From NCBI GenBank assembly GCA_963663475.2, contig CAXXJV010000001.1, forward strand, positions 2,272,001 through 2,336,000: a stretch of DNA of 64,000 nucleotides, in the 5' to 3' direction. A program made the position numbers and the translations under genes. Below, one piece after another: positions 210 to 55,100 of the stretch. The DNA is from Candidatus Cloacimonadales bacterium. GTDB taxonomy: Bacteria > Cloacimonadota > Cloacimonadia > Cloacimonadales > JAFGVF01. The notes under the pieces were generated by a model. The model had not been told where the DNA came from and did not search any database. It saw nothing but the letters and a program-made list of their open reading frames with translations. The first letter of the stretch is position 1. Each line of letters opens with the position of its first letter.

Positions 210-946
210 TATACAGCTCCAAATCGTCTATCGCGATTTTGATAATCAATGATCGCTTGCATTAAATTCTCTTTTGAAAAGTCTGGCCAAAGCTCAGGAG
301 TAAACCAAAACTCAGTATAAGCATTTTGCCAAAGTAAATAATTTGAAAGTCTCATCTCCCCGCTAGTTCTAATAAGTAGTTCTGGATCAGGAACACCAGC
401 AGTGTAGAGATAAGAAGATAAAATGTCTTCTGTTACCTCTTGGCAGTCTAATTTTCCAGCTTCTTTATCCTCAATAATTCTATTGACGGCATCTAATATC
501 TCTCTGCGTGAACCATAATTGATGGCTATAAGGACTGTTAATCCAGTATTAGCCAGTGATTTTTCACATGCTTTGTCTATCTGATCAATAAAATTTCCAT
601 CAAGTTCTTTTCTAGAACCAATAAACTTTAATCTTACATTGTTTTTAATTAAATCATCAAATTCTTTAAAAAGGGTGTTAATTATAAGCTTGAATAATCC
701 AGTGATTTCGCTCTTTGGCCTGCTCCAGTTTTCAGTTGAAAATGTGTATAGCGTTAAATATTTAACACCTATTTCATGACATCCTTCAATGACTCTTCTT
801 ACTGCTTCAGCTCCATGCTTATGACCATAAAGTCTGTTTTGCAGACGTTTCTTAGCCCATCTTCCATTACCATCCATTATTACAGCTATATGTTTTGGTA
901 CTCGATTTTTATCTATTCTCTTCATGAGCTCTTGATATCTTTCCAT
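209..946 (-). CDS. uppS: undecaprenyl diphosphate synthase (isoprenyl transferase)
   Basis: HIAVIMDGNGRWAK, FSTENWSRP, RTSGEMRLSNYLLWQ, RRFG motifs. Confidence 0.97.
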   Translation of the reverse strand: MERYQELMKRIDKNRVPKHIAVIMDGNGRWAKKRLQNRLYGHKHGAEAVRRVIEGCHEIGVKYLTLYTFSTENWSRPKSEITGLFKLIINTLFKEFDDLIKNNVRLKFIGSRKELDGNFIDQIDKACEKSLANTGLTVLIAINYGSRREILDAVNRIIEDKEAGKLDCQEVTEDILSSYLYTAGVPDPELLIRTSGEMRLSNYLLWQNAYTEFWFTPELWPDFSKENLMQAIIDYQNRDRRFGAV

Positions 947-2059: not shown

Positions 2060-2154
2060 TAATTCTCCAGATTTATGAATTTATTACATGTTTTTCTTAA
2101 TGGTAAATTAGTCAAGATTTTAAAAATAACCTAGCTTTTAACCACTTTATTTTA

Positions 2155-33268: not shown

Positions 33269-36200
33269 TTAATTATTATTTTTAGATTTTTTTTTGATTC
33301 TGTCGATTTGTTGTTGAGTAAAATCAGAATAATTTACATCTCCAGCATCTTTAAAGAGGAGATAAGCTTCTTCAAGTTTTTCAATAGCTTTTTGGTCATT
33401 AGCTAAAATTTCAAAGGTAATACCCCAGTTAAATAAGGCCTTTCCTTGTCCGATCTTATCACCGATTTCTTGCAAGCTATGATGTTGAATTTGGTAAAAT
33501 TCTAAGGCTTTGGGATAATTTTTCTCTTCTCTGAGAATATTAGCAAGATTCCCTATTGTATGGGCAATTCCTTCTTTATCTTGAAGCTCTTTTTGAAGTT
33601 CTAAATTTGATTCATAGTATATTTTAGCTTGTTTGAAGTCTTGTTTATTGAAAAAAGCATCACCAAGTCCGTCATTAGCATAAGTAATACCAATTTTATC
33701 ATTTATTAATTGAGCTATAGATTTAGCCTCTTGAAGATATTTTATAGCAAGGTCGAAATTTTGCAGAATGCTGTGTACATAACCAAAGTTGTAAAGAACA
33801 GTCTGCTCTTGTTGTTTATCTCCAATATACTTAGCCATCAATAAGCATTTATCTAAGGAATCAATGGCTTCTTGATCTTTACCTTGAGAGAAGAGAATCA
33901 TTGCTATTTCGGTATTTACTTTAGCAAAACCATGTTTATCCCCGATATTTTCAGCTATAGCAAGAGCTTCTGTAAAGTATTTTAAGGCATGATCTTGATT
34001 ACCTCTTCTTATCTCAATAATACCTAAGGAAGTTTTAGAGATGCGCAAGAAAATCTTTTTATTATTTTGGGAGGCTAGTTTACCTAATTTTTGGTAGCTA
34101 GCATTAGCTATATCATATTCAGCTCGATCTAGTGAATCTTGTCCAAGAATAGAATAATAGATTATTTGTAGTAAAGGTGATTGCTTACTAATCTCATTTT
34201 CTAACTTATTTTTTAAATTAAAGAATTTATTTCTAGCATTAGTCATTCTGAAATAATCCAACATTATTAAATCAATTCTTTGTTTTATTTCTGTAGAATT
34301 GATTTGTTTTTTTATATCTTCATGAAGTAATACTAGGTTTTTATAGTCTTTTTGGATATCTAACAATCTAAATTTTGCCAGATAGTAGAGATCTTTTTCT
34401 TGGTCATTTAGAAAATCAATATTTATTAAATCAAGATATTGTGTTACTTGAGGAGCTTTATTTTGTTCTAAGAATGAATTAACTAACTTTAGTTTTATTT
34501 GATTTTTTGTAAAATCATCAGTAGCAAAAGAAAGGGCTTTTACATAGTAATATGAGCATATTGAATAGGAAGCTTGCTTTTGGTTTTTATCAGCTGCTAA
34601 AAGAGACCATTTACAGGCTTGAGCAGGTATTTGGGCAGAAATAAAGTGATTAGCAATGACTTCATAGAAGGGAAGTAGATTATCTTTAAATTCTTGTAGA
34701 TAATAATTAGCAATTGTTTTATGAAGCTTACGTTTCTCAGTGAATAAGATTGTTCTGTAAATAGCATCTCTCATCAATGAATTATTAAAGTAATATTCAA
34801 TTTCGGGTAGAATTATTTTTTTAAAGAGTTGTTGATTTTGAGTTAGATTTTCTAAGACCTTTTCGATTTGGATTTGAACGAAGTCTTCAGAAAAGATATT
34901 TAAAACTTGATTATTAAAACTTACCCCCATGATAGAGGCATACTTTAGGACTTGTTTAGTTTGAGCATCAAGAGATTCAAATTCATTTAATAGAAGTGTT
35001 TCGAAAGTATTTGGTAATTTACCTTTTCTTACAAGTTGTTTAAAATCATTAAGATCAAATGTGCTATAATTATCAGTTAAATTTTCTTTAATAAGAGAGC
35101 ATATTTCTTTTATATAGGCAGGATTATTGTTAGCAAGCTTCAAAATCTCTTTTAAAGCAGCAGGAGTAATACTTAGTTTATGGAAGGAGACAAAATCCCT
35201 TAGTAAGTCTTCATCAAAATCTTTCATTTTAATAATATCTTGGGAATATAATCCATAACTAAGAAAAGAATCTAAACTACTAGAAGTTATACTAAGTCTT
35301 ATATTTTTAGAAAGTAATTTAGGAATAAGAATTTCTAGTAGTTTGGTTGATTCAAAATCTAACCATTGGAGATTTTCTAGAATTAGAATTTGATATTCTT
35401 CTAAGAGTAGGATTAATATTTCGGATAAAAGATCTAGGAGTAGAGGTAATTCTTTTTGCTTAATTTCACTATCACTTTCATTAAAAAATTCTTCAATTAA
35501 AGTCAAATCAAGGTTAATTTGCTTATTCTTCAAAAAATCTTCAATATGGGAAAGATCTGTTAGAATATTATCTAGTTTAGCATAAGCATTAAAAATATTA
35601 TAGAAGAGTGTGAAGGATTTTAGTTTATCATATTCACTCAAAACTAGAATTTTTACATGCTGATTATCATTTTTGTTTTTTAAATACTCATAAATTAGAT
35701 GAGATTTTCCGCTTCCTGATTTACCATAAATTAGGTTTAGCTTTTTATTATCCATATCTGCTAAAATATCATTATAAGCTATTAATTTACTATTTTTAAA
35801 CTTGTCAACATAGGCTGTCCAGTAATCAGAAAACTCATTACTAACATGATAAATTTCAATATCTTTGCTTATTCCTTTAACATTAACTTTATCTATGAAT
35901 TGTGTTTGATAACGTCCTTTGATAAATGGAAGGATTTCAGAAGAAAAAGCAAAGTCATTATCTTGAGATTTACTCATTAATCTTGCAGCAATATTAACCC
36001 CATTTCCTATAATACCATATTCATATCTGTCTATTGCCCCTAAAAGTCCACTGTAGATATTATTGTAAGTTAGGCCAATTTTTGTTTTTATAGCAGGAGT
36101 TTCAAGCTTGGATACTTTTAAACATGTGGCAAAAGCTCTTTCAATATCATCTTTATGGATAAATGGTACACCAAAGGTTATTAGTATTAAATATCCCTTA

Positions 36201-37009
36201 TCAGTGTAGTCTATCTTGTTAATTGTACCATCATAAAAATAGACAATACTTTGTAGTTTAGAGTAAAAATCTTGATAATGGATAATATCAATTTCTTTTT
36301 TTTCTAGAAGAGTACTTTCTAGTTGGATAAAAATTACGGCAGAGTTTTTTAATTCACCACTAAATTTTCCTGAGCTAAGCCAGTATGAAACTTTTTTAGG
36401 AAGAAAGTAGCTTGAACATTCGCTAGTTGTTAGATAATCTTGACTTGTTATCAGAGGTAGTTCACTTAAATTTCCTACCTCTAAGTTTTTATCACCTTGA
36501 ATAAAAATATCTTCAAGGGCTTTTCCTGAAATATAATAATCCAGATGGTGTTTAATATCACCAACAATATTAATATTTACTTTACCCCAAGACCAATTGC
36601 CGTGAAAAGCAATCTGAAATTTATAGATGTTCATAAATTTTTTATTAAGAATCTCAAGAGCTTTATTCATTTGGGAAAGGCTTATTAAGATTCTCTTACT
36701 TGCTATGTCTTGATCACCTGGGAAAAGAGCAAGTATAGAATCTCCACCAAACTTGATAAGGTCTCCCCCATTAGCTTCTAATACACGATACATTTCATCA
36801 AAATATGTATTAAGCATGTCAGTAATTCGTTCAATTGAATAATGTCCAGCTTGACTTATTTTCTCAGTAAGTTTGGTAAAGCCTTTAACATCAGTAAATA
36901 AAACTCCTGCATCGATACTAGTAGAATAGGGTATTTTATCAAGACAAAAGTCTTGACGACTGATAATTTTTCTAATTATATTAGGAAGTAATTTGGAATA
37001 ATTAAGCAT
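33269..37009 (-). CDS. soluble adenylyl cyclase-like protein: two class III nucleotide cyclase domains, STAND NTPase, TPR repeats
   Basis: FTDVKGFT and KFGGD (domain 1); NKID and GNGVNIAARLM (domain 2); Walker A GKSGSGKS; Walker B LILENLQWLD; GDKxG-type TPRs. Start placed at ATG 37009 after a GGGAGAG SD (ORF track start is 37027). Confidence 0.9.
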   Translation of the reverse strand: MLNYSKLLPNIIRKIISRQDFCLDKIPYSTSIDAGVLFTDVKGFTKLTEKISQAGHYSIERITDMLNTYFDEMYRVLEANGGDLIKFGGDSILALFPGDQDIASKRILISLSQMNKALEILNKKFMNIYKFQIAFHGNWSWGKVNINIVGDIKHHLDYYISGKALEDIFIQGDKNLEVGNLSELPLITSQDYLTTSECSSYFLPKKVSYWLSSGKFSGELKNSAVIFIQLESTLLEKKEIDIIHYQDFYSKLQSIVYFYDGTINKIDYTDKGYLILITFGVPFIHKDDIERAFATCLKVSKLETPAIKTKIGLTYNNIYSGLLGAIDRYEYGIIGNGVNIAARLMSKSQDNDFAFSSEILPFIKGRYQTQFIDKVNVKGISKDIEIYHVSNEFSDYWTAYVDKFKNSKLIAYNDILADMDNKKLNLIYGKSGSGKSHLIYEYLKNKNDNQHVKILVLSEYDKLKSFTLFYNIFNAYAKLDNILTDLSHIEDFLKNKQINLDLTLIEEFFNESDSEIKQKELPLLLDLLSEILILLLEEYQILILENLQWLDFESTKLLEILIPKLLSKNIRLSITSSSLDSFLSYGLYSQDIIKMKDFDEDLLRDFVSFHKLSITPAALKEILKLANNNPAYIKEICSLIKENLTDNYSTFDLNDFKQLVRKGKLPNTFETLLLNEFESLDAQTKQVLKYASIMGVSFNNQVLNIFSEDFVQIQIEKVLENLTQNQQLFKKIILPEIEYYFNNSLMRDAIYRTILFTEKRKLHKTIANYYLQEFKDNLLPFYEVIANHFISAQIPAQACKWSLLAADKNQKQASYSICSYYYVKALSFATDDFTKNQIKLKLVNSFLEQNKAPQVTQYLDLINIDFLNDQEKDLYYLAKFRLLDIQKDYKNLVLLHEDIKKQINSTEIKQRIDLIMLDYFRMTNARNKFFNLKNKLENEISKQSPLLQIIYYSILGQDSLDRAEYDIANASYQKLGKLASQNNKKIFLRISKTSLGIIEIRRGNQDHALKYFTEALAIAENIGDKHGFAKVNTEIAMILFSQGKDQEAIDSLDKCLLMAKYIGDKQQEQTVLYNFGYVHSILQNFDLAIKYLQEAKSIAQLINDKIGITYANDGLGDAFFNKQDFKQAKIYYESNLELQKELQDKEGIAHTIGNLANILREEKNYPKALEFYQIQHHSLQEIGDKIGQGKALFNWGITFEILANDQKAIEKLEEAYLLFKDAGDVNYSDFTQQQIDRIKKKSKNNN

Positions 37010-37082
37010 GATTTCTCTCCCAGGCAAAGATAAAATATATATTCAACTTAGATTAGATTTTGACAAGTAATTTCTCAAAAAA

Positions 37083-37114
37083 ACACAGAGAATAACAAGT
37101 GCTATTCTCTGTGT
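37083..37114 (-). terminator. rho-independent terminator after the giant gene
   Basis: Minus strand ACACAGAGAATAGCA-CT-TGTTATTCTCTGTGT followed by TTTTTT. Confidence 0.85.
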
Positions 37115-37124
37115 CATAGATTAA

Positions 37125-40100
37125 TTAATTCTTTTTAGACTTTGATAGAGAAGGTTTGATGATATTACCATCCCTTGTAAGGTATCTGTGAGTGTTGATA
37201 AAGTCTTCTAAAGACATTCTTTGGTTATTAACAAAACCAATAATGAAATAGAATTGTCTTGGAGCAAGTTCAGCAATATTAGAGTCTGTCCAAGTCAATT
37301 CAGTGACATTATCTCTATACTCATAGATACCATCTGCATCCAAGCAAGAATAGATTAAATAGGAAACATTGGCAACAGGTGAACCTGATATACTTTCACT
37401 AATTTCATTCCATTCTAGGATAATATCAGTATTTGACATTGAAATAAGAGGGTATTGAGGAGCAGGAAGAGGGTCATCTTGAGTAACCACGAAACCTTGT
37501 CTATTTACAATATCAGTGAAGGAACCAGTTGTCATAGTCAAAGTAACATTATAGATACCTGGTGATTGGTAAATATGTTCAGGATTACGTAAGCTACTTG
37601 AGTGACCATCTCCAAATTCCCATAAGATATCAGTAGTTGGATCATCATGACCTTCTGATTTATTATCGAAGTAGATAGGTATTCCAGGAGTATTGAATCT
37701 ACTGCTTGAATTGAAATTTGCTAGGTGGTGATGATAGTTCATACCAATATCAGCAATTGAACCATCAGGGTCTAAATCTAGGTTAGGGTTACCACCATCT
37801 ATGCAATTAGAGTGAATACTTAATTCTAAATTATGAAGATCTGAATCTGCAAATAAAGGGTCAGTATTCATATTGCCAATTCCAGGTGCATTATCAATAG
37901 CCATGGAAATATTGTTATATTCAAAAGTAGTTTCAATATCATTTCCACTGGCAAGATCTGCTTCACTAATTGGACTACCCCAAATAATATTCTGACCAAA
38001 ATAGAGAGAGCTGTTATTTGCATTAACAATCTTAGAATAAGAAAGTATATTATTATTTAAGATTTGAACATTTTGGATATCAGAAGCAAAGAGGAAGGTA
38101 GCAAGATCACCTAAGCTATTCTCTATATGATTATGATGAATCTGAGGCAAACATTCATTACCTGTAAGATCAAAAGAAACTAGGTTATCGAGGAAAGTAT
38201 TTCTCTCAATAATGGCATTATTATTGCCAGTAACTTTTAATCCACAAGCAAAGCCTGCTATTTCAGAGTTTCTAATCCAGGAGTTAGCTTGATTATTTAA
38301 AGTGATACCAACACCTAAATTTCTGCTAGTATTACTAGTATGTCTTACTCTAATATTTGTTAGGGTCGGGATAGTTTCATCAGATGAATCTAGATAAATA
38401 CCCGACATTACATTTTCAGATTCGAAGTCATGTAAATCTAAATTCAATAAACCAATACTTTTGAGAGCAAAAGCGTCAGTTCTAGAGGTATTAGTAGTGT
38501 GTCTAACTCTAATATTAGTTAAAACAGGAGTAAGAGATTCTGTACGGGAAAGATTTTCTAGGTAAATACCAGTTAAGCAATCTTCAATGAGAAGGGAATC
38601 AAGTAGAGCTTCAACCTGACCACTAATGTGGATACCAAAACCACCTAATTCTCTAGAAGTATTAGTAGTGTGGCGGACTCTAATATTAGTTAATACAGGG
38701 CTAGAGGAAGATGATGAGTAAATTGAAATTCCATCATGAACATTATCAGATTCAAAATCATCAAGAGAAAGATTTACTGAGCCTACACTATTGAGGGCTA
38801 GAGCGTCAGTCCTTGATGTATTAGTTGTATGACGAACTCTGATATTAGTTAAAACTGGAAGACTAGATTCACTTCTATTAGAGTTGTCAAAGTTCAATCC
38901 AGTGACATAATCTTCCAAAATCACATCAGACATTTGTGGAGATACATTACCCATACAGGTAATAGCAGTTCCACCTAAGTCTCTTGATGTATTAGTTGTA
39001 TGTCTTACTCTGATATTAGTGAGAGTTGGATTTATCGATTCTGAAGAATCATAGAGTATTCCATTATAGATATTATCTGATTCAAAGTCATTAAGACTCA
39101 TATTTACCTTGCCTAGAGATTTCAAGGCATACGCATTAGTCCTTGAAGTGTTAGTTGTATGTCTGACTCTTATGTTGGTTAAAGTAGGAGTAATAGCTTC
39201 TGTTCTGCTAGAATTATCAAAAATAATACCAGTGAGATAATCCTCGATTTCTAAGCTATCAATTACAGCATTAACACTTCCTGTAAATTCAAGGGCAGTA
39301 TCGGCTAATTCACGTGAAGTATTTGTTGTATGTCTTACTCTGATGTTTGTTAATACTGGACTAGGTGAAGAGTTCAAGGCATCGAAAGACATAGCCTTAG
39401 AAAAATCTTCAATTTCAATATTGCTAATGTTTGGTGAAGCATCCCCTTCTACTTTTATAGCATAAGTGTCATCTAACCTACTTGTATTAGTAGTATGTCT
39501 AACTCTTATGTTTGTAAGAACAGGAGCACTTGAACCTTGAGTAGATTTGATCTCAATAGCTTTAGCAAAATCTTCAATATCTAGATTATCAATATTGACG
39601 TTGGAGTTATGGATTTTAACAGCTATAGGATCGTTTTCTGTTCTAGAAGTATTAGTAGTATGTCTAACCCTGATATTTGTGATTACTGGAATATCTAAAG
39701 AAGCATCACCTAGTATTTCAATACCAGTGTTATATTTATCAATATCTAAGTCATCAATTATAGCTTGGCTAGGTCCAGAAATCTTTATTGCTGAATGTTC
39801 ACTATCCAGACCTTGAATAGTTAAGCCAGTTAGATTTGGGGAAGCTCCATTAATCTCGATTGCTTTTCTAGCATTTAAGATATAAGAGTTGGAAAGACTA
39901 GATATTTCGTCTGTAGAAGTAAATTTGATCCCTTCCCATTCACCTACTTGTCTTTCTTCACCAGCTACAGTTCCAAAAGTGACTCCATCTGCAATCAAGC
40001 CACCAGAAACAATAAAGTATGTATCTTCCATGATATTGATAACAGTTCCAGGCTCAATGTTTAAACTTGTACCACTTTCTACAGAAACTTGACCATAAAC

Positions 40101-43100
40101 ATTGTATGGAGACAGAGCTACTTGCCAATCACCAAAGTAATTACCACCAGGAATAGAAGTTCCTTCAACACTAATATAATTCTCATATCTTACACTATCA
40201 GAAGTTACTAGTATATCGTCTTCATCGATATAAGATACTACAAGTGATACTGAATATTCCCCCCCAATATTATAGTTGATACTTGGGTTTTGGAGATATG
40301 AATCTGGCACATCATCATTATCTAAATACCAAACCCAATGATTTGGATTACCTTGGGTTAAATCAGTAAATTGAACAGTTTGTCCTGAAAGAATTTCTGT
40401 ATTATCAGCAGTAAATTCAGCATTAAAGGAATCAGTTATTGTAATATCAATATCCTGTGAAGTAACTAGTCTGCCTGAACCATCACTTACATTTACTGTC
40501 AATGTTTCTGTTCCTGCCCAATCTTGAGGAGCATAGAAGGTAACTTCAAGACCTAGAATATTGTAAGTTACATGTTCATTATTATCAATACTTAAACTCA
40601 ACAATGATAAGCTTTGCTCAGGATCATAAACATGATTTGCAAAATCTATCACTTGTCTGGTAGTTTGTAAGATAGTAATAGACTCTGGAAGTTCTATGAA
40701 GTATGGAGCATCGGCAACATCGACAACTGTAACAGTAATAACATCACTCACAATACCTTGGTGATTGTCGGAAGCTGTGAAAGTTAATTCTTCAATTCCA
40801 AACCAATCTTGATTAGGTGCTAGAGTTACTATGCCATTAGTGATGCTTACATGAATATTATGATTACCAGATACTGTGAAGATGAGATTATCATTATCAC
40901 CATCACTGAAATATGTTCTTAAGTCAATCTCTTGGTTAATAGCATCCTCTTCCATTACTATATTAGGTATTGGTGAGGTTAACACAGGAATAGTATTTAT
41001 TACACTTATATAGTTATTTCTAAGAAGTGAATGACTTTCACCATTTTCGTTTTCTACAGTTAGTCTTACTGAATAACTTCCTCTATTTTCATAAGTATAG
41101 CTAGGATGAATCTCATAACTATCAACTATGCCATCGTTGTGGAAATCCCATTGATATTCACTTATCTGGGAACCGTCAGAAGTTTGAGCTAAGTTAGTGA
41201 AGGTAACTTCAAGCTCTTTTGGTCCACTAAGTGGAGTAGCTGTGAAGTTAGCTGTAATCAATCTCTCTGTTACTGTCATGGTTACATAGATTAATAAAGT
41301 TGAATTATCTGGGTCATCAGAATTAACTTGTACAATAGCGTTATAGTTTCCTTCAGTTAAATCGTAAGCAGAAAAACTTAGTTCAACTTCTTCACTTAAA
41401 CCTTGAGGAATAGTTAATGAAGTTGGTTCAACACTTAACCAGGAAGTTCCACTTACCCTTATAGATGAGATATGCAAATTACTATTCCCAGCGTTTGTTA
41501 TAGTGAATTGACCACTATCTGTTCCAAAGCGTGGTATAGTTGTAGCTATTGAAGTAGTTGAAAGCTCAATTTGAGGAGCTTCTATAGCTGTGGCACTTAA
41601 GGTAATGATTTGACTTTGGTTATTTGGGTCGTTAGACTCAATAATTAAGTTCTCAGTGAAAGTTCCAGCTTCAGAACTTTCAAAGGTTACAGTAATTGTT
41701 TCACTTTCTCCATTTTGAAGTACAAATGCTCTGTTAACTACACTGAAGAAACCATTTGAAGTTGTAAGTGAAGAAATACTAAGAGGGGCATAACCTTGAT
41801 TAGTTATCTGAATATTTTTCATTTTTGGATAACCAATATAGTTGCTTCCAAAATTGATTTCATTATTCACACTTAGAACTGGGTCTCCTGAAAGAATATT
41901 GAAATTAGTAGTTCTTTCACTTTGTTTTATATTTGTTGCAACATCATAGATGGCAAGCTTAACACTATAAGTGCCAATTTCACTATCAGGAGGTAAGTCT
42001 AAGTTTGCACTTGTTTGCTGATTTGATGTTACAGACAGATTAAGAGTCTCTTGATAGGTGTCAATCACTTGTAAATCTGGATTCAACAATTCATATTCAG
42101 CTCTGACAGCTTGATTATAAAGCTGAGTAGTTATGATAGAATTAACTTGAACTTCTTCTCCAGGATAATAGTTTGATCTATTCAAATTTAAAGAACTTAT
42201 AGTAGCATAAATCGGAGCTTGATTAAAGACAAACTGACCCCAAATTATTCTTGAATAACCAGAATCTGTACTATTAACATCTAATGAAATCTCAATCTCA
42301 TTAGCAACATTTTCTCCTAAGTTAATTAATTCAGGATTAATCATAAATTCTGTAATACTGTAATTGTTATTGCTGCCAACAAGTTGACCAACCCAAGTAC
42401 CATTTACAAAGACATAATTGATTTCTCCTGAGTCGATATCATAAGCTCTGATTCTTAATTTGGCGTAGTCAACCTCAGACTCATTAGTATAAATAAAGAA
42501 TTCTACAGGAGCATTTGGTGAATTCTCACTAATATTTATCCCAAGATCATTATCAGTAGTTTCTACAAAATCATTGCCAGCATTATCAGTATCGGTGAAG
42601 TTAAAGTTAGAATGATTAAGAATCATAGGTAGAGATAATTCTGAATTATCAGGGTCATTACTTGTAATAGTGAAATTAGCAAAATATGAGCCATAGTCTA
42701 TGTTCCTGGTATCTAGGGTTAGATTTATGGTAGCAGAAGCACCAGCTTCTATACTTCCTGAAGCAGGATTAGCAGTAATCCAAGGAAGCGCTAATGTCTC
42801 GGTAGAGAGAGAATAATCTAGTTGAGCTTGTCCTTCATTGCTGATAACTAATTCATCATAATAAAGAGTGTTATCCAGAATAAACCAATCTAGGGATGTT
42901 TTGTTTATAGTAATCTGCGGAACATTAACTCCACTACCACTCATATTTATTTCTAGACTGCTTTCATTATTTGCATTTGAAGTAATAGTCAAAACAGCTG
43001 TTTCTTCAGTATCACCTGTTGGAGTATATCTAACAAGCATTACTCTGTTATTACCAGGTTGGATATTGATAGGACTGTTCAAAGTTGGAAGAGACATTGA

Positions 43101-46100
43101 AACAAAATCAGGGTGTGAAGAACCGATATTGGTAATTCTCAATATTCCAGTTCCTTGATTGTAAAGAGTATATTCCAATTCTCTGTAATTTCCTACATTG
43201 ACTTGCGAGAAGTCTAAATTATCAGTTGATACCAATATTTCAGCAGTCGCTTCAACACCGTAACCTGTCAAAGCAACATGGTCTTCCCCATTCTCATCAT
43301 TACTAAGAATAGTTACACTTGCAGTCTTTGCACCTTGACTTAAAGGTGTGAAGGATACAGTAACACTTCTAGATGCTTCAGGAGCAAGGGTAAAGGATGG
43401 AGGACTTACTAAGAATTCATTACTTTCAAGGCTAACCGAAGATACTTGTAAAATAGAAGATCCAGTGTTAGAAACAGTAAATGTCTGATTTGCTGAGTTT
43501 CCAATCAAGACTGAAGCAAAGTCAATATCTGTCTCAGAAACTGAAATACTTGGATTACCTGATACATTTAGTTGAACAGGGATTTCTTGACTGCCTTGAG
43601 GGTCATTACTATTCACCAGCAATAAGGCTGAGTAATTTCCTGCATATACATCAGCTGCTGATAGATTTACTGTTACAGTTTGACTAGTTCCTGGATTAAT
43701 GTCTCCGGAAGTTGGAGTCAAACTTAACCAATCATTTGCTTCAACACTCCTACTTCTGCTATTATCATCACTTCTACTCCCTCCATTAATCATTATCTCA
43801 TAGGAAAGTGTTCTATCTCCAGAGTTTGAGATAATTAGCTCTCTATCTTCACTTTGTCCGTACTCTAATGATGAAACAATATTTTCAATAGATAAACCTA
43901 TGATTGGTGGTAGATAACCTTGTCCATTTAGATTAACTGATACTAATCCAATATTGGTTTGAATATCCATTATAGCATCAAATTCAATGTTGTTATCAGG
44001 ACTAAATTCAACATTAATATCGCTTGATGCTCCAGGTGCTAAAGAGCTTATATTTGTATTTGTTGTGAATATTCCAAGCGGTGTGAAAGTAATTGATTCA
44101 ATGGCTAGATCATCGCTTCCTATATTGCTAAGGCTTATACTCTGAATATCTGAATAACCGACTGCAACTTCACCGAAATTAATCTGACTGTCACTAATCT
44201 CATACTCAGGATAACCTTGAACACGCATAGTTACAGGAAGATTAATTAATGAATTCTGTGGTACATTAGATGTTAATCTAACACTTCCACTATAATCACC
44301 ACCATAAATACCTGTAGGATTAAAGGTAATATTGATGTCTTGATAATGGCCAGGTGCAATAGTTCCTGAAGTATTATCAGTAGATAACCAACGACCATCA
44401 TCTACTTGGAAAAGAGGACCAGAAACATCACTTATCCATAGATCTTTGCCATTGCTGGTAAAGGAGTAGATTACATCGTTATCCCAGAATGAATTCTCTT
44501 CTGTAACTACAATTGAGCTATTTACTAATTGTAGTTGAAGAATCTTTCCACCAATAATTACCTCATCTTCAATTGTATTCTGTAAAGCCCATAGTTCATT
44601 GTTATAATAGTCTTCTACCCAAACTAACTGGCTAATATTCATACCTAGGTAAGCACTATATGTCTCGAGAATATCACCATTGTGAGCAACTCGATAAATA
44701 CTTGACACAGGATTATCTCCAAATGCTCGGCTAATTAAGAAACTATCCCCCATATAGGTAAGAGCAGGGAAGTAATCAACAGGTGAGGAGAAGGATGCAA
44801 TAGGAGGATTTGTAGAAGTATTCAAGGTTGTTGGGTCGTAACAATAAACATTACCTGATTGATTACCAATCCAGAAATAGGTACCGTCATAAGTAATTCC
44901 ATAAGGCAAAGTATGAATAGGATAACTTTCGGTAATTTGATAAGTTTCTAAATCGTACTTAAGCAATCTTCCTGTAGCTTGAACTTCATTATCACGGTTA
45001 AAATCAACAATATATAGTTCATTATTTAACCAGTATAGTCCAGCATTCCAAGCAGGCATATTTGGATATGTAGCTATCTGATCACCAAGGAATCTATTAG
45101 CTTCACTTGTCACTAAATTTTGATATGGTAAGTCATTTATGACTATATTTCGGCTTTGGTCTGCAAAGAAACCCATTTCTCTTAACTCATAGTCATTAAT
45201 AAAATTCTCTTCACGTGAATTTACTTCATCAAGAGCAAGAGAATAAATTAAATTTGAACCACCGTTGTTAGTCAGCCTAAGAACTTGGCTTTCTTCTTCG
45301 TCTACTGTGAGATTAGCAAGAAGGGAAGCAGGATTGACTTCAAATGTTGGTTCTCCTTCAGCAATACCTGATAATTGAATTATATATTCACTATTAGCTA
45401 TATCATTAGAGTAAATAGTCATTTGAGCTGTTTTCACACCGCTGGATAGTGGAGTAAAACTTATGCTAATACTTTGACTTGTTAAAGGTTCAATACTTAT
45501 CTGGGTTTCTGTTACAGAGAAATCACTACTATTAAACATAATATTGTTTATTTCTAAGTCTGAAGAACCTGCATTTGCTAATTCAATCTCTTCAGTGAGA
45601 GTTTGTCCAATAAAGCATGTAGCAAAATCAAGCTCATTCTCAGATGATACTAACACAGCTTGTCCGATAACATCTAAGATAACATAAATTTCTGAGCTTG
45701 GCGTTTCTGCATCGTTACTATGAATATCTAGAACTGCTTCATATCTGCCTGCCATGAGATTCCTAGCATTATATTCTAAAGTAACAATTTGGTTTTCACC
45801 TTCTACTAATGAACCTGAATCAGGACTTACAGTTAACCAGTTAAACTCATGGATATTGTCTTCTATTCTGTATAATTTCGAATCAGTCTCTGAATCAGGA
45901 GCAATCCATAAATCTCTGCCATTATGGGCTAGGGCATAAGAAGTACCACTAAATTCATTATAGCTAATCTGCTTCAATAAACTTCCATCTGTAGGATTTA
46001 ATTGTCTAATCTTATGAGCAGAATAATCAAGCGCCCAAAGTTCTCCACCTGTGTGGTCAGCAACCCAAACTATCTGATTCATCTTGCCATTAAAATTAGT

Positions 46101-49100
46101 ATCTATAGTACTAATAACGCTACCATCAGTATCTAAAGTATAGATTTGAGGATTATTAACTGAAGAAGGAGAGATAATAAAGTTTTCTCCATTCCATGTC
46201 ATTGCATAATTACCTGTAAGAATACTGTTAAATTGATCTACCTGATTACCAGCTAAGTCATAAGCATAGAAGGTACTTGAAGATGAGCCTATCCATAAAT
46301 ATGTTCCGTCATAAGTAATCCCGAATGGTGAAGAGTGAATAGGATATTGAGCTATTACGCTTTCATTGCTAATGTCATATTTATATAACTTATTTTGGCT
46401 ATAAGAAATAATATACAAGTATCCATCTACCCAAACCATACCTTTATTACTGTTAGGAAGATTATCAAAGACACCAGATACTACATCACGATCTAAGACT
46501 TCTATAAGCTCAATATCAAAGTTAAGTTCTTCTCCTTGAATATTGCTTATAGTTAACTCTTGATTTGTTACCTGACCACTGTTAACAGTAGCTGAGAAGG
46601 AAGATGTGGATAAGGCGATTTGAGGAGTATAAACCCCATTACCAGTTATCTCAAGACTTCTCACTGCATTACCTGGTAAGTTAGTAGTAAAGGTAAATTG
46701 ACCTGAATAAACCCTTTCTGCTTCTGGAGTGAAATTAATAATGATTCTTTGGCTTTCATTTGCTTGAATACTTAACTGAGTAACTTCAGTAGTGAAGACA
46801 TCCTCTGATATGTTAAAATTACTAAGATTTAGAACATCACTTCCTGTATTGGTAATTAAGACAGATAGGGTATCAGAGTAACCTATATAGCTATTAGCAA
46901 AGTCAAGAGTCTCAGGAGTGATTACTATATTAGGAATACCTGTAACATTTACAGTTAGTGGGATTTCTATAATACTCTCATCAGGGTCATTAGAAGTCAT
47001 TTCTATTACTTGGTTATAAGTTCCTCCAATAATATCAGAAGCATCTAAATTAATATTGAGAGAAGTTAGGTTTCCTGGTCCAAGTTGACCTGAAGTGTTA
47101 GAGAATGAAATCCAGCTGGGAATGGTAGAGACATTACTTTCTGAAATCCCAGCATTACCATAAATAACACCAGTTGTTTGATAAGAAGAACCATCACGAA
47201 GGTCTTCTTGATCGAAGTTCCAGTAACCACCTAAATTCTGTTCATTACCTAATAATCTAACATTTCGGTAGTTAGCAATTTCAGTATGACTTCTAGCAGA
47301 TTCCCAAATTCTGAATTCATCAATGCCTCCATCAAAGCGATACCAGTTAGAACCAGTTTCACTCATCTTTCCCAATATCCAGGGGGCATAATTACCAGTG
47401 AAATTAACTACTTCTTCTTGAGTAATCTGATTGCCATCTAGATAAACGGTCATGATATTATCATTGTAAGTTACTGCTACATGATACCATTGATGAAGTT
47501 CAATATTATTAGCTACTAAGAATTCTCTATTGCTTCCATTGTTAAGAGCAACTTTAAGATTCTTATCACTTTCTTGATTATCTATTCCATCAGTATAAAT
47601 ACCAAATGAACCAGTCTGTGAAGATACAGATTTACTAACTATGCATTGCTTACCACCATTATAGATAGAACCATTAGAACTTTGACCAAGGTTAGAATCA
47701 ACTTTAAACCATAGTTCAACACTAAAGCTTCCTCCGTAGAGTTGAATAGGAGCTCTATTTCTTATATATCCATAATCAACGCTTGGAGAGTTAAATCCAT
47801 CTACTTCAAACATCATTCCAAAGTTATCTTTGATGTTCCAGGTTAATTCATTTCCTCCAGTATTACTTATCTCCAGATTTTCACTAATATTCTCACCTAC
47901 ACTCATAGCAATTTCGATGTCATTAGGAGCATAAGTTACTTGAGGAGCAATTGAACCCTGTCCAGAAACACTGATTACGAAGTTTGGTTGGTTATCAGCA
48001 TTACTGATAATTGTGATATTACCTGAGTATTGTTGAACAGCAAAAGGTTCAAACGTTACATTAACAAGAAGCTCTTCATTCGTATTTATAATAGCTCCTG
48101 CCAGATTATCATCCACAATAAAGTATTGATTATCAGAAATGATATTAGTAATTTCCAGTGGAGCAGGTCCTACATTTCTAATAGTAACTTCTTGGCTTTC
48201 TGGTACAATAGTATAGACATTACCAAAATCAAGAGAAGTATGAGAAACTTCAATATATGGAACATTCTCTATACCAATACCAGTTAAAGCTATAAGGAAA
48301 GCTGGAGTATTTGAAGCATTACTTATAATAGTCAAATTACCTTCCACTTGCCCTAGAGAGCTTGGAGTAAAAGAAATTATTATATTCTGCGATTCATTAT
48401 ATCCTATAGTTGTAGAAGTAATATTTGAAATAAAGTTTGCATGATCACTTGAAATTTCTGAAATAACTAAATCAGCATGCCCAGTATTAGTTATTGTTAT
48501 GATTTCTTGGCTTGTTTCATTTTCTAATACTGGTCCGAAATCTATAGTGTTAGTTTCAACAAAAATCTCAGATTCATAGGGTTTTACTTCAAAATTACTG
48601 GTGAATAAAGCTTGCTGAATATTGCTATTATTATCATATACTATTACTTGAAGCTCATAAATACCAGGACTATAATGGTCAGCAATTTCTAATGATTCGC
48701 TAAAAGCATCACTTTGACTTCCAATTATTGTTAAAACACGTGATGTACCTGTTACAATAGTGTCCCAAGGAGAATAGATAGTGGTCTCTACTCTAATCTC
48801 TTGATTCGCAAGATTAGTATCAATCTCTTCAGTAACACCAACATTTGCTCCCGCATAATAAGAAGTTTGATCTAAATCGATATATCTAATAGAAGCATTT
48901 AGACTTGTATTATCATAGCTTAACTGGCCCCAATCTACCTTGATAGAATTTCCGACAAAGTCACTGTCTACTTCTATCTCGACCTTGTTTACTAAACTAC
49001 CATCTAAATAACTGGGTTGAACTTCAAATAAAGTTGTTGTCCATGTATCACTTAATCCTCTTAATTCACCTAAAATATAATTATTAAGATAAACTCTATG

Positions 49101-52100
49101 AACTCCACCACCTGCATTATCGACATTCCAAGCTCTAAGGCTTAGTTTAACAGTCTCTGGATTAGGATTGTTACTAAAGATGTTAAATTCTATTGGTGCA
49201 TTAGCACTGTTATAACCAACAAGAACATCTAAGTCATTATCACTAACACCTAGACCACTGTTGTCATCATTATCAAAATCTGTAACATTATAGACTTGTC
49301 TGACAAGTTGTAAGTTAACATTTGTTACTGGGCTACCAGGCACATTACTGTTAACAGAAAATGAGCTGTCATAGATACCAGCTACTAAATTAATTGGATT
49401 AACTGTTATGGTAACTACTTGCTCACCAGCTGCTTCTAACTGCCCCATAAACGGATTAAAACTAACCCAGTTATCATCTGATTCAAGGTTATATTCTAGT
49501 GTTGAAGCACCGTTGTTTCTAATAAGAATTGTCTCTGTATCAAGACCACTGCCAAGAACATAGAATTCCAAGTCTTGACCAATTACCTCAATTTCTGGAG
49601 GATTTATTGCTTGGGCAAAAAGAGAAAGAACTAAAGGATTATGAAGATAATCAGTAGAATATATGTTTAAAGAAGCATCATCATTCCCTATGGTTTCTGG
49701 ATTAAAGCTTACTTCTATTGTTCTACTTTGACCAACAGGTATAACAAAATTGTTATAATTAACTGAATAATAATTACCAGTTGAGCTGATATTATTAATT
49801 GTTAATGTTGAAGATCCCGTATTATTGATTACTAAAGGTAATACTTGATTACTGTTAACGAAAACCTGACCAAAATCAAGTGAATTAGTAGAAACAGATA
49901 TTTCAGGTAAACCTAAAACTGTAAAAGTAACAGGTACTTCTATAAATTCCTGATTAGGGTTGTTATGATTAAATAAGATATTGGCATGATAGACACCTGC
50001 ATTTAAATCTGAAGCAGAGAATGTTATGTCAACTACTTGGTTTTCATCGACTTCAATATTACCAGAACTAGTGGCGATATCAAGCCATTCGGCAAGTCCA
50101 CTTTCTTGATAAGTGACAGATTCAAGTCCCCATTCTAAGGAACCTAGACCATTATTCTCAATTGTGAAAGTACTTGGGAAAGTCTCACCAGTTAAAACAG
50201 AAATAGTGAAGTTTTCTGGACTTACACTCATCTCAGGAGTTGGCCAAATATCTACCATAAAACTTAGGCTTATCTGATCAGAATGGTTATTATAAGCAGT
50301 TAATTCAATTTCAGCACTACCAAACATGTCTTCAGTAAAGCTCAAAGTTAAATTCATATCACTTATACTAGTTGTTACCAGCTCTTCGAAAGTATTTAGG
50401 GTTATTTCATAAGAGGTTATCTGACTATCAACATCGTAAAATCTTTCAGCTAGGTTAATCTCAAGGTCGGGACTATTCATAGGTTCATAGACATTATCAA
50501 TTGGATTATTCACAGACATTGGGTCATCTATCGAAGTAACAATTACCTCAATATTATCAGAAGCAATAGCTCGTGTTCTTCCAACATTAACTCTAGAAAT
50601 CCCATCTCCTGCTTGGTCATCTACTGTGAAGTATAAGACCTCGCTACCAAACCAATCAGGCATTGCAGAAAAGGTAACCATAAAACCATCAATCTCAGTA
50701 TAAATATTACTACTTTCTTCACAAGTTAATATAAGTTGATCATCCTCATCAATATCAGTTATATACTCAGAGAAATCTACATCTAAAGTAGTGTCTTCTT
50801 CAAAAGTGAATAATTCTGGAAGATTAATGTTTGGGTTATGATTAATAGCATTAACCCTAATATAATCTTCTTTAGTTTCTGTAACTGAACCGCTATCATT
50901 ACTGATAGTCAAAGAGACAGTATAGCTTCCTGGTTCTTGATAAACATGGTATGGATTTTCTTCAAGAGAAGAAGTTCCATCTCCAAAATCCCATAAGTAG
51001 GAATTACTATTACCAATTGATTGGTTAGTAAAAATCAACTCATCATATTGAGTACATATTGTTTCAGAAGCAATAAAGGCAGGATTTAAATTAATATATG
51101 CAAATATATAGTTGCTTCCATACCAAGAGCCTAAAGATATTAGATAATTATCAATATTATCATGAGCCATATAATTACCAGGTTTATTATGTTCATGACG
51201 TGAAGCATAATAATACCTAGAACTATTATAACTTGGGTCACCATTTCTTTTTACATAAGCTGAACTTCCATGATCTTCTAAACCTAAACTATCATACAAT
51301 ACTAGCAAGTCTTCACCGCGGTTATGATAAGCAACTAAATCGTACCAATCAGCTACCCTATAATCATTTCCAAGCAAGTTGTTGATAATTTCATCCCAAT
51401 TGGAATCATCTTCATAAGCTAATGTTGTTCTAGCAAAGTTATTGTAAAGATAGCTACTATTGAGAACAGTTATATAGTCTTCTTTCACTTCTGTAACACT
51501 ATCATCGCCCTCAAAAATAGTTAAAGAAACACTATAGCTACCTGCTTGTGTGTAGGTATGTAGTGGATTAGACTCGTTTGAAAAATTACCATCTCCGAAA
51601 TCCCAATAATAAGTTACATCACCTTGAGTGGAAAGATTAGTAAATTGGACTTCTTGGCCTGTGATAACTTGCAGATTATCAGTTGAAAAATCAGCTATAA
51701 GTTGATGAACAGTCACATTAACCCTATTGGAAGGATTAGAATCAACAGCTCCATAAACTTGGGTAACATAATATTCATATGATCCATTAGGTAAGTCATA
51801 ATCAACATAAGTCATAGTTTGAGCATCAAGACTAGCAATCAGAGATTCATCACGATAAACTTTATAGCCTGTCAAATCTCTTGTATTAGAGGAGTAGTCG
51901 GTCGAACTAGCAATTGGTCTTGTATAGCTAGCTAGAAGACTTTGCTTTTTACTATTAGCCTTTGATGTTAGCTGATATAGAGGTTGATAGTTTGAAACTA
52001 GTCTATCTTGTCCTGAATAGGAAGCGAAGGCTTTAATATTAAAGTTTACAGTTAATGATGAACTAAGATTATGGAGATAATCCCAATTTGAGCTATCATT

Positions 52101-55100
52101 AAACCTAATCATATTTCCACCTTCAACAAGCGGACCATTATCAGCTCCAGCTGGTAATCCTGATGGAGTATTGACTCTATAGCCAATATATAGTTGGCCA
52201 CTAGTAGGGATAGCTATTGTTGAATCAAGAATATATTCATTCCATTGTTGATTTTCAAAAGAAGTTATATTCTGAGAATAAAGTTCATCCATACCTGATG
52301 GTCCACCCCAAACTTTGAGAGTATAAGTTGCCTCTGCAACTCTTGGGAACATTTTAATAGAAGTTAAGTACATACCTTGATAAGCCAAGAGTTCTTCAGA
52401 TGTATATTTGAGAGCTACTGAGAATTCTGCTGCATTATTAGTTCCTATACCATTATAAGACGTGTCATTACATTTTTGTAACCAGACACCATCTTCTTCT
52501 TGCCAGTTTAGAATAACATCATTGTCGTTATCCTCTACATAAGCACTTAGTCCACTTGGTGAAGATACATAGACAGTCATGTATTCAGTTTTATATTCAA
52601 TATCGCTTGAATCATCATTATAGATAGTTAGCTTAACATCATAAGTACCTGGATAGTAGTAGGTATGGTTAGGATTAGCTTGGCTGGAATAAGAATCATC
52701 GCCAAAATCCCACTCATAAGTGTCAATATCACCGAGGGATAAGTTAGTAAAAGTAACTTCACTATTAGCAGAGATAGTTTGTTGAGATACAGTAAATTGT
52801 GCAACAAATTTATCTTCCCAACTTAAATAAGGATAATGACCTGATGAGAAAGTCCAAATATCTTCGCTTCCATTAGCAGATTCTCCTTGGAAATCCCAGC
52901 CTAAATCAATGAAGTTTGCTTGATCTAGAAATTCAAGACTACTTATACCTGCAAAATTAATTAAGTTACCAGTATTACCACCAGCTCCTAATTCAATATC
53001 ACAAGTTTCATTATTCCAGAGTGAATTACTTATTATAGATCCATTATTGAAACCTATAAAAGCACCTATTGAATTACTTCCGGAGACATTACCTGTGGAA
53101 TAGCAATTGACTATTTGTCCTGACTCTGAAGAAAGACCAACAAATCCTCCCACATAATCATCCAAACTTTGAATATTACCACTAGCATAAGAATCTGAGA
53201 TACTACCATTATTGTCAGCTACCAGACCTCCCCCATAAGAACCAGCACCATTAACGTTTGCTGAAGAATATGATTGAGTAATTGTTGAACCTGCCATATT
53301 CTTAGCCACAAGTCCACCTGTGTAAGAACCAATAGAAGAGATTTGTCCCTGACTATATGATTTAAAGATATGAGAACCATCATTAAAACCAACTAATCCG
53401 CCCACATTTTCTACCCCGTGAACATTACAGGAAACGTAAGAGTTTTCAATTGAGGCTCCACTTTGACTGTAGCCTACAAGACCACCTACAAAGTGGCCAG
53501 AGCAATCAATATTTTCAAGAGCAAAGGAATTAGAAATAGTTGATGAAATATTATAACCAACAAGTCCTCCTACTATATATGAACCATTCAAAATAGCCTC
53601 AGTATAGCAATTATTTATTGTAGATTCATAGTTATTACCTACAAGACCTCCAACCATCGTATTACTAGCCTCAGTACCTGTTATAATACCAGTTACTGAG
53701 CAATTTTCTATAAGTGTATTGGCGTAAGTTCTACCTACTAAACCTCCAACTTTTTCATTTCCATATACTTGAATATCAGAAACAAGCAGGTTAGATATTG
53801 TAGCTCCATATGTATAACCAAAAAGGCCAACATATTCTGCTTGAGGTAAGTTAATGTAGTAGTTGCTTATAGAGTGATTATTACCATTATAGTTACCCCT
53901 GAATAAATTACCCCATTCATAACCAATTGGACTAAAGCCTGAACCTTGAACATATTGACTTGATTCCGCATCGATATCAGCTGTTTGTTCAATATAGATT
54001 CCTTGTCCCCAATATTCATTATTTTTGGTTAATATGTATAAATCATCTATATCATTTATAAGGTATGGTGATTCTTGGCTACCTTGTCCTTGGAGAATTA
54101 GCTCATTAATTTCTACTTGAGCAATATTGGATGGGAATGATTCAATATCCCCATAAACACCAGTCACATAATAATATGATTGAGTATTAAAGATTGGGTT
54201 GTTATCTTGATAGTTTCCCTCAAAGACAGATGCTATCATGTAATAAGTATCATTATCATTATCAGCAGATCTATAAACACTATATGAATCTGGAATAATT
54301 CCTGAACTTGACCCAGTCTCTACTTCTACTCTTAAGGCTACATTAGAACATGAATAAGCATCTAGGGTACTTTGCCATTGCTCATTTGCATATGTGTAAG
54401 AATTAGCAGGACTACTAGTTGTTTCCATTAATAATCCAAAATTTGATGAGTTTTCATAATTGGCAATACCGATAAAAACGTTAGTGTTAGCAGGTATAGT
54501 CCAATTTTGATCAGAAACATCTATATTACACCAATCTGGATGAATCTGATTGATTGTTGTTGCTAAAGAATATAGTTCATTTCCAGGAAGGCCATTATCA
54601 TCAGACCAGACCTTAACATCTATATAATTATTTGTTAATGTCCCATATAAGACAAAGCCAATTGTATTAATTTGCATATTAGAAGAACTTGTATTTTCAG
54701 CTAATATAGCAAAAGTATTTTCACCATTTGCAAAATACTGCCAATTTTCATCTGTCCATTTAATCTCTTCTATACTTGATTCTATAAACTCGTCCCAAGT
54801 TAGATTAATGTTGGGATAATCTACTTGAGCTATTAAGTTTGTTGGAGCAGGATAATCATTAGTAATCTCTATTTCTACAACATTTGAAGCTTGTGATTCC
54901 TCTTCATCATAAACTGCTGTTACGTAATAAGAATATATATTACCCACTTCAATATTTGCATCACGATAAAGAGTATCTGGGATAACAGATTCAGTGATTT
55001 CAATACTATTTCGATAGACTTTATAGCCTTGCAATGCTCTTGTTCTACTTCCAGTAAACTGATATGGAGACCATGTTAAATCTATAAAGTTACCAACTAA

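Follow-up and report, generated by a model that had tools for sequence, protein, structure and literature searches.

Why should a thirteen-residue peptide recur nine times, almost letter for letter, in a protein whose intervening sequence has been left free to diverge? The question is raised by a stretch of 64,000 nucleotides from a Candidatus Cloacimonadales bacterium (contig CAXXJV010000001.1, positions 2,272,001 to 2,336,000; hereafter the window, with coordinates counted from its first letter). One minus-strand open reading frame of this window, assigned from the open reading frame list and its translation (37125..60131), encodes a giant protein of 7668 residues that carries the nine copies in its C-terminal part. 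Our best explanation, which we regard as an even bet when taken as a whole, is that the peptide would form one coil of a two-coil repeat in a predicted right-handed beta-helix, that the loops of this array may present uniform recognition sites, and that the array may work together with the product of the adjacent gene.

Nine copies of one peptide

The pattern TNIRVRHT[TS]NTSR matches the 7668-residue frame nine times, eight of the matches being identical and the ninth carrying a single Thr-to-Ser change. The copies start at residues 6818, 6873, 6928, 6985, 7038, 7095, 7148, 7205 and 7258 and together span residues 6818-7270, with spacings of 55, 55, 57, 53, 57, 53, 57 and 53 residues, and every one of them is directly preceded by P-[VT]-[LI]. 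In the window, where pattern matching places them all on the minus strand, copy 1 (TNIRVRHTTNTSR) lies at 39642..39680, copy 2 at 39477..39515, copy 3 at 39312..39350, copy 4 at 39141..39179, copy 5 at 38982..39020, copy 6 at 38811..38849, copy 7 at 38652..38690, copy 8 at 38481..38519 and copy 9 (TNIRVRHTSNTSR) at 38322..38360. The count, positions, spacings and P-[VT]-[LI] lead of the original prediction were thereby reproduced exactly. Nine identical 13-mers within one giant protein cannot be a matter of chance.

Across the nine units the mean pairwise amino acid identity is 94% over the 16 residues of P-x-L plus motif and 25% over the remaining ~40 residues. The spacers have a period of their own: spacers 3, 5 and 7 score 70-101 against one another and spacers 4, 6 and 8 score 93-106, compared with -4 to 62 for all other pairs, in agreement with the 110-residue super-repeat that had been claimed, and units 3-8 make up three such super-repeats. 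A search of the host genome with the 510-residue array protein returned only the giant gene and one weak paralogue.

Selection on the peptide

The identity of the nine copies could in principle have arisen at the DNA level, through recent duplication or gene conversion, without the peptide being under any special selection. The codons of the window's array argue strongly against this. Identical residues are encoded by the same codon in 46% of motif pairs (250/542), compared with 45% expected from the codon usage of the gene; the proportion of differing synonymous sites (pS) between paralogous motif copies is 0.683, compared with 0.694 expected at saturation; and the identical-base runs shared between motif copies have a median of only 10 nucleotides, next to spacers at 25% identity. 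The R-V-R codons originally quoted, AGG GTT AGA, AGA GTT CGT and AGA GTC CGC, are those of units 1, 6 and 7, and the last Ser codon of the motif is TCN in seven of copies 1-8, AGT in copy 2 and AGC in copy 9.

Comparison with other genomes gives the same picture. Five congeneric orthologues, whose proteins are 64-74% identical, retain the motif peptide in every unit, and they do so across species that are themselves near synonymous saturation. The motif-versus-spacer comparison that the original prediction had called for can be made in these orthologues: the proportion of differing non-synonymous sites (pN) is 0.025-0.060 in the motif and 0.19-0.32 in the spacers at equal pS, and the ratio of non-synonymous to synonymous rates (dN/dS) of the motif is near 0.03. 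In all four congeners in which unit 9 is seen, the Ser of its NTSR is encoded by AGY, with TCN in the other units; because AGY has been kept in all four, unit 9 has not been overwritten by neighbouring units since the origin of the genus. Among 31 classified strain differences (from the 40 displayed of 114, in metagenome contigs of closely related strains), the two that fall inside motifs are synonymous, and the seven non-synonymous ones all lie outside motifs.

Judged by these codons, recent DNA copying is excluded as the cause of identity in the window's array, and a DNA-level origin is refuted there. With synonymous sites saturated, it is selection on the protein that holds the motif, as had been predicted, and we conclude that within the window's genus the uniformity of the motif is due to purifying selection alone. 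The evidence in favor of a DNA-level origin comes from other lineages, in which motif codons are more alike than codon usage predicts and Ser codon classes are uniform within an array and flipped between related arrays (L030 versus L032, L038 versus L044). As an account of the nine-copy identity, however, we find it scarcely credible.

A two-coil repeat in a predicted beta-helix

Alignment and AlphaFold2 modeling delimit the array of nine ~55-residue two-coil repeats at residues 6815-7309 (38205..39689, minus strand). It sits within a beta-helix domain, residues 6654-7485 (37677..40172, minus strand; AlphaFold2 single-sequence model and Foldseek), in which ordinary coils flank the array on either side. 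The single-sequence model is a regular, strand-rich solenoid with predicted local distance difference test scores (pLDDT) of 70-94 over local residues ~100-600. With eight aligned arrays as input, the structure prediction that had been suggested as a check yields a confident beta-helix solenoid (pLDDT 88.1; predicted template modeling score, pTM, 0.90) with four strand segments, that is two coils, per unit, and thus the stacked parallel-strand coils by which a solenoid of this fold is recognized. Foldseek points the same way: for the single-sequence model every listed match except one (8yaa, a receptor complex) is a right-handed beta-helix protein, and for the aligned model all 42 listed matches are parallel beta-helix enzymes, tailspikes or complexes thereof. 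These matches to the PDB, which comprise beta-helix glycanases, lyases, epimerases and tailspikes, have weak E-values (best 5.8e-4) and low TM-scores (0.2-0.48). The nearest ESM Atlas clusters are Beta_helix/NosD. Other hallmarks of the fold are also present, including Asn at position 6 in 96% of units with Asp or Asn at the equivalent place of the second coil (coil B), and Ile7 and Val9 in line with aliphatic residues of coil B. We conclude from the modeling that the array is a two-coil (~55-residue) repeat of a right-handed parallel beta-helix, with the motif on every second coil (coil A) as originally proposed.

The first eight residues of the motif, V-L-T-N-I-R-V-R, are always modeled as strand and are followed by a loop of 11-12 residues. 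How the two coils stack on each other was approximated from a two-copy model, in which residues 409-437 of one copy stack end to end on residues 1-32 of the other, placing coil B (D-F-E-S-E-N) on coil A (N-I-R-V-R-H). The touching pairs are F423/S425 on I7/V9 and E424/E426 on R8/R10, and in the nine-unit alignment the coil-B positions that face the two Arg are acidic in 7/9 and 8/9 units. In the model, therefore, the two Arg appear to join alternating ionic ladders with the Asp/Glu of coil B rather than a pure Arg ladder. The Arg/His ladder of the original prediction needs correcting: the Arg point outward but are stacked on the Asp/Glu of the intervening coil, and the His is genus-specific.

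The two-copy model was used solely for this register. As a homo-oligomer it scored 0.52, nominally a result in favor of binding, compared with 0.00 for the best of three controls, with at least 94% of contacts in agreement between runs and a partner pLDDT of at least 84. The mark concerned was reached by 20 of 30 solved one-chain pairs and 1 of 23 solved single chains, counts that apply roughly here since our own alignment was the input. We rejected the oligomer because its interface places the cut C-terminal coil of a truncated solenoid on the cut N-terminal coil; both native ends continue into further coils, and the interface was therefore not taken as oligomerization.

The modeled loops are the least certain part of the structure. 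The pLDDT falls below 50 only at residues 124-127, 234-237 and 344-346, which correspond to the NTSR of units 3, 5 and 7 (N-T-S in the third case); the remaining motif loops have values of 58-82 per 10-residue block, and most other blocks 86-98. From the model we infer that the loops are exposed. The hydroxyl-rich residues sit in these low-confidence loops and not on a strand face, where an ice-binding beta-solenoid would have its flat Ser/Thr sheet array. In contrast to pectate-lyase-like enzymes, the array has no catalytic signature that we could identify, and its sequence regularity argues for a non-catalytic scaffold.

An uncurated repeat family with lineage-specific loops

No curated Pfam or NCBIfam model scores above threshold over the repeat, which is in line with the original statement that it belongs to no named family; the concern voiced there, that the repeat might already match a characterized Pfam/InterPro family, is not borne out by these models for the window's array. 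Below cut-off, and only at its end, the window's array scores 21.3 bits with NosD (cut-off 23.6) and 23.4 bits with Pect-lyase_RHGA_epim (cut-off 27). The 441-residue array has no beta-helix-superfamily Pfam match at E<=1, its profile finds no relative in the PDB by sequence (best E 0.58, NosD), and PADLOC has no match for it. Among homologous arrays, Beta_helix is reached at E 3.8e-14 by one of eight and NosD, at best E 9.6e-10, by three of eight. Searches of open-access full text for a Cloacimonadota beta-helix, Cloacimonas surface repeats, or a cyclase/STAND/TPR gene beside a beta-helix returned nothing relevant.

The family itself is sizeable. Among 1.8 billion representative proteins there are 2269 matches at E<=0.001; 43 of the best 150 relatives have at least three motif copies at a period of ~56 residues, and a hidden Markov model of the unit finds 733 units in 105 of 151 proteins. 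The proteins that host arrays range from ~260 to 8200 residues (open frames as listed, some of them ended by contig edges). Within Cloacimonadota the array profile matches 91 of 232 genomes, spread over 29 of 66 genera. In named genomes 16 loci were confirmed, and 15 of them are titled Cloacimonadota or Cloacimonadales, in a scan whose four-row alignment and narrow patterns make it uninformative on other phyla.

The family consensus is P-T-L-T-N-[IV]-R-[VI]-R-N-[ST]-[TS]-x-[ST]-x-R-x4-G-I. Positions P2, N6, R8, R10, R17, G22 and G44 are 0.83-1.00 identical between proteins, and this framework (P, N, R-x-R, N/H, R and two G) is, on the available alignments, conserved phylum-wide. The homologue search proposed with the original prediction recovers a family, common in Cloacimonadota, that keeps R-x-R and R17 but neither the His, which is Asn in 85% of family units, nor the loop residues. 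HTTNTS, which had been taken as part of the conserved motif, is instead the loop of the window's genus. Between R10 and R17 the sister genus has NSENS[VST], and other lineages have NTTSPV, [QT]SDSAT, HTSESI, NSGESS, NTQDTS, NSTNTQ and others, in each case uniform per protein.

This uniformity within, and turnover between, proteins can be measured. Across 36 proteins, identity in loop columns 12-16 is 0.75-0.91 among the copies of one protein versus 0.19-0.49 between proteins, whereas spacer columns are about equal within and between, mostly 0.1-0.5, save for the two conserved Gly. In 16 six-copy proteins, internal spacer i finds its best match in spacer i of the other protein in 785 of 1200 comparisons (chance 0.2), and because the spacers match by index the array predates these proteins. 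Their loops, in contrast, are 0.90 identical among paralogous copies and 0.49 identical between orthologous copies of the same index. On these comparisons, separate expansions from one founder copy each do not suffice to explain loop uniformity: the loop evolves in concert, and the concerted change is restricted to the motif. Close relatives show this on a small scale. P0033 and P0155 have spacers 74% alike, with NSGESS in all six loops of the former and five NSNESS plus one NSDESS in the latter. In genus g32 (L060, L061, L078 and L082) the residue pair before I-R-V-R is T-Y, I-N, V-N or G-N according to species, in all or nearly all copies, and in one of these species an ancestral T survives in the last copy. 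The codons concerned in this genus are ACC, ATC, GTC and GGY, each reached from the one before by a single base change, and the loop NSTQTSR is unchanged. An argument that used the last unit as proof of concerted change was dropped; the spacer after the last motif is the C-terminal flank.

Codons suggest how this concert may come about outside the window's genus. In 13 of 18 arrays identical motif residues share a codon more often than codon usage predicts (p<0.01; 0.48-0.78 versus 0.30-0.40), a prediction that may be too low since spacer values are also somewhat raised. Within one genus, the Ser codons of the loop are TCC-AGC in five copies of one array (the sixth copy has Asn at the second position) versus AGC-TCY in all six copies of another. 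Other arrays mix AGY and TCN at one loop position, and in codon-biased lineages the motif DNA is nearly uniform. We propose that short-tract gene conversion probably contributes in codon-biased lineages, atop strong peptide selection everywhere; in the AT-rich window genus only selection is visible in the codons. The dismissal of DNA homogenization in the original prediction consequently stands for the window's array but cannot be extended to the whole family, given the excess codon sharing elsewhere.

One relative deserves separate mention. A protein of 6262 residues (L067/L010/L020, on G018:C9) has 23 copies of TNIRIRNTTSPVR, and because its 115-residue super-repeats are nearly identical in places its array appears to have expanded recently. 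Its cyclase neighbor lies on the opposite strand and matches with in-frame stops (one TGA and one TAG).

A paired cyclase-NTPase-TPR gene

The next gene downstream of the giant gene, recognized by domain scans and translation (33269..37027, minus strand), encodes a protein of 1252 residues that combines class III cyclase-like domains with a P-loop NTPase (AAA_16, STAND-like) and, over about residues 940-1252, TPR repeats. By eye the cyclase part reads as a tandem, with F-T-D-V-K-G-F-T near residue 45 and a second, more divergent domain near residues 230-395, and a Walker A motif, G-K-S-G-S-G-K-S, occupies residues 435-442. The protein is weakly similar to Pycsar cyclases (PADLOC, E 8e-10) and to the STAND part of TIGR03903 (far below cut-off), and a scan of its sequence found no signal peptide or hydrophobic segment. 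In the 97-nucleotide gap between the two genes, directly after the stop of the giant gene, lies a terminator-like hairpin (37082..37115, minus strand) with a 15-bp stem, a 4-nucleotide loop and a T run; one such hairpin was found versus 0.2 expected in shuffles. One RNA-library contig piece ends at 37124, beside this hairpin.

The pairing of the two genes recurs across the phylum. A full-length homologue of the neighbor is present in 8 of 12 inspected 20-kb array loci of other genera (27-30% identity, E 1e-94 to 1e-166) and is the sole conserved neighbor in those 12 loci. Among 232 genomes, 85 have both array and neighbor, 6 the array only, 6 the neighbor only and 135 neither. The two lie at most 12 kb apart in 53 of the 83 genomes with listed places for both, at a median gap of 1.2 kb, and share a strand in 30 of 33 loci. 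Some homologues of the neighbor read through one or two in-frame stops (TAG, TAA or TGA; in G019, G031, G145, G150, G162, G193 and others), which could be pseudogenes, sequencing errors or something else.

A second, paralogous pair exists in the genome of the window and in at least four congeners (G000, G002, G003, G004 and G006). Its beta-helix protein, of ~1000 residues, is built of units that all carry T-P-T-M-D-[IV]-I-R-I-Y-Y-S-P-[DE]-S-W-K-x-x-R, and next to its gene lies that of a cyclase-protein paralogue at 26% identity. Duplication of a whole two-gene module, with its motif diverging, provides a strong lead. This second module lies outside the window, at G000:C1:498408-502259 (L002) and G000:C1:503971-507705. 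The L002 beta-helix protein has at least five near-identical ~65-residue units (TPTMDIIRIYYSPDSWKxxR ... DVEIENYDEGITIKADNDDDDEPHG); it is split into two overlapping frames, 2..1609 and 1507..3093, suggesting that the repeats contain a frameshift or assembly slip, and by eye its end resembles a type IX sorting domain. An open reading frame with a YADD reverse-transcriptase-like motif follows at 3211..3852 of L002 (minus strand), and then the cyclase-NTPase-TPR paralogue.

The giant protein that carries the array

Read from its translation, the 7668-residue protein begins with a signal-peptide-like N-terminus, followed in Pfam scans by Ig-like (HYDIN/ASH/choice-of-anchor D type), PKD, GLUG, LamG and cadherin-like domains; its C-terminal part comprises the beta-helix array, a PKD domain and an FN3-like end. 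The protein is as acidic as the original prediction had held, with a computed isoelectric point of 4.05 and a net charge of -714. Pfam scans of the whole protein found neither an autotransporter beta-barrel translocator nor an N-terminal two-partner secretion (TPS) domain, and the C-terminal 1458 residues have no match to a type IX sorting domain (Por_Secre_tail or similar); PF18962/PF13860 is present in some homologues. Contigs from one RNA-library run cover 37124-39457 piecewise, with none listed over 36400-37083, and transcription is thereby neither proven nor excluded. Near the other end of the protein, residues ~200-750 and ~950-1500 (about 55600-59500 of the window, minus strand) form a large internal duplication of several hundred residues, in which stretches such as ...YYWKL.AFS...NGW.VLD.TGNSYNYCQVDYG.A.S.P..LRLHNSGTTSG.YILSSP... 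can be read by eye twice each.

Discussion

We propose that the motif is coil A of a two-coil (~55-residue) repeat in a long right-handed parallel beta-helix, which would be part of a secreted giant surface protein. In this proposal P-x-L-T-N would close one strand and make the turn with its stacked Asn, and I-R-V-R would be the next strand, its Ile and Val directed toward the core and both Arg outward onto the Asp/Glu of coil B (consensus D-x-E-I-E-D-Y). H-T-T-N-T-S-R would then open a loop of ~11 residues that projects at every second coil, ~9.6 Å from the next if the usual rise of 4.8 Å per coil is assumed. The framework is fixed phylum-wide, and the hydroxyl-rich residues between R10 and R17 are lineage-specific and alike in all copies of one protein. 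We infer that function resides in the loops rather than in the scaffold: lined up as 6-24 identical and exposed recognition sites, they would all have to fit one partner specific to the lineage, whether a glycan or other periodic ligand, a second protein or an enzyme that modifies them. An external partner is favored over pure packing because the loops are hydroxyl-rich, often contain Glu or Asp, are not consistently cationic and are modeled with low confidence. The presence of Glu/Asp in the loops of many lineages likewise disfavors the binding of a polyanion or metal, which had been among the roles first suggested. The array may act with the adjacent, presumably cytoplasmic, cyclase-NTPase-TPR protein, which could regulate it or bind it as a ligand.

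It is also possible that the motif is purely structural, with Asn stacks, Arg/acid ladders and loops packed on their neighbors keeping a long solenoid in register, identical neighbors packing best and no external partner being involved. The near-invariant framework across lineages is what such a role would predict, as is the register of the Arg with acidic coil-B residues in both the two-copy model and the nine-unit alignment, and a conserved Tyr/Phe in the short coil-B turn (74% of units) could carry the long loops. Ladders, however, seldom demand the invariance of six polar loop residues at the dN/dS found here, and the loops are the parts of the model with least confidence. Moreover, no confident long-loop contacts are listed across the stacked interface, a weaker point because residues that are not named there are merely uncertain, and loops that turn over between relatives as close as P0033 and P0155 would be odd if they were tightly packed. 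We therefore consider a purely structural role rather unlikely, if still to be taken seriously. Alternatively, the loops could be repeated sites of modification (O- or N-glycosylation, Ser/Thr phosphorylation) or of Arg-specific processing, with the modifying enzyme as partner. The family consensus R-N-[ST]-[TS]-x-[ST]-[STV]-R has Ser or Thr at about four of its six loop positions, N-T-S in the window's genus and N-[ST]-[ST] in many others fit N-x-S/T, and beta-helical adhesins such as AIDA-I, TibA and HMW1 carry glycosylation at repeated sites. Yet there is no universal sequon, since NSENSV, SDSATR, HTSESIR and NSGESS do not offer N-x-S/T at a constant position; the 12 inspected 20-kb loci show no conserved gene for a glycosyltransferase, kinase or peptidase next to the array; and for the processing variant we know of no precedent for the cleavage of a beta-helix at every second coil. 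On balance modification or processing seems improbable.

Adhesion between like molecules, in which arrays of two molecules or cells would zip together through their loops and lineage-specific loops would give kin-specific aggregation, suits identical periodic sites with lineage specificity as a concept, and Ag43 and its relatives do self-associate along their beta-helices. The two-copy model, however, joins its copies end to end, as a continuation of the solenoid with no lateral loop contact, and the very high net negative charge of the giant protein disfavors self-association in the absence of counter-ions; we judge this role very unlikely. A more speculative variant of the preferred proposal is that the loops are a peptide code, read on unexported or unfolded array by the TPR sensor of the neighbor, which would switch cyclic-nucleotide synthesis in a self-surveillance or feedback module. 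We think this a long shot; if true, the loop should change in step with its sensor, and the coexistence in one genome of two paralogous pairs, each with its own motif, would be accounted for.

Several observations weigh against the recognition-site proposal and its link to the neighbor. That the loops are exposed is read from their low pLDDT and from the way residues alternate between inside and outside, and low pLDDT may stem from the shallow alignment of eight rows. Gene conversion, to judge by the 13 of 18 arrays with excess codon sharing, could make the copies of a protein alike with no need for them to be so, and heterogeneous arrays exist (P0041, P0029 and P0060). As for the pairing, in the complete genomes G007, G031, G036 and G135 the two genes are far from each other, in the window a terminator-like hairpin stands between the giant gene and its neighbor, and related genomes are not independent, such that the co-occurrence counts overstate the support they give. 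Finally, a neighbor that has no export signal is unlikely to be in direct contact with a folded, exported array.

Comparison with known systems helps to place the array. It shares with Beta_helix (PF13229), NosD (PF05048) and PbH1 coils the predicted fold, coils of 26-29 residues, a turn-stacked Asn, inward aliphatic residues and a Gly-Ile that starts the next strand; it differs from Beta_helix/NosD in that its unit consists of two unlike coils, one of which has a near-invariant R-x-R strand and a long uniform loop. AIDA-I, TibA, Ag43 and HMW1 are likewise large surface proteins with a beta-helix of short imperfect repeats and repeated functional sites. Unlike them, the array protein has no autotransporter barrel or TPS domain in Pfam scans, its repeat is 55 rather than ~19 residues long, its motif is far more uniform, and it belongs to another phylum. 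The scaffoldins of cohesin-dockerin systems offer a conceptual parallel, with many near-identical binding sites per polypeptide, specificity that differs between species, and two paralogous, differently coded systems per genome; here, however, the putative site for a proposed partner is a loop of 6-7 residues on a continuous solenoid rather than an autonomous domain. In the Lap system of Pseudomonas the gene of a repetitive adhesin of several thousand residues also lies beside a gene for nucleotide second-messenger signaling. The neighbor described here, whose functional link to the adhesin is putative, is a class III cyclase-like-NTPase-TPR protein with no membrane segments, not a receptor for cyclic di-GMP plus a protease.

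These data describe an uncurated repeat family that has a simple searchable signature and is frequent in an uncultured phylum from anaerobic digesters and sediments. Its arrays provide an exceptionally clear natural example of concerted evolution limited to a motif of ~16 residues in otherwise diverging, positionally orthologous repeats, and because one lineage shows selection alone and others bear signs of gene conversion, selection for uniformity can be tested against homogenization. A rigid scaffold with a swappable loop every ~1 nm would be a natural template for multivalent display. Through its pairing with the cyclase-NTPase-TPR gene, the array also gains a concrete candidate partner or regulator.

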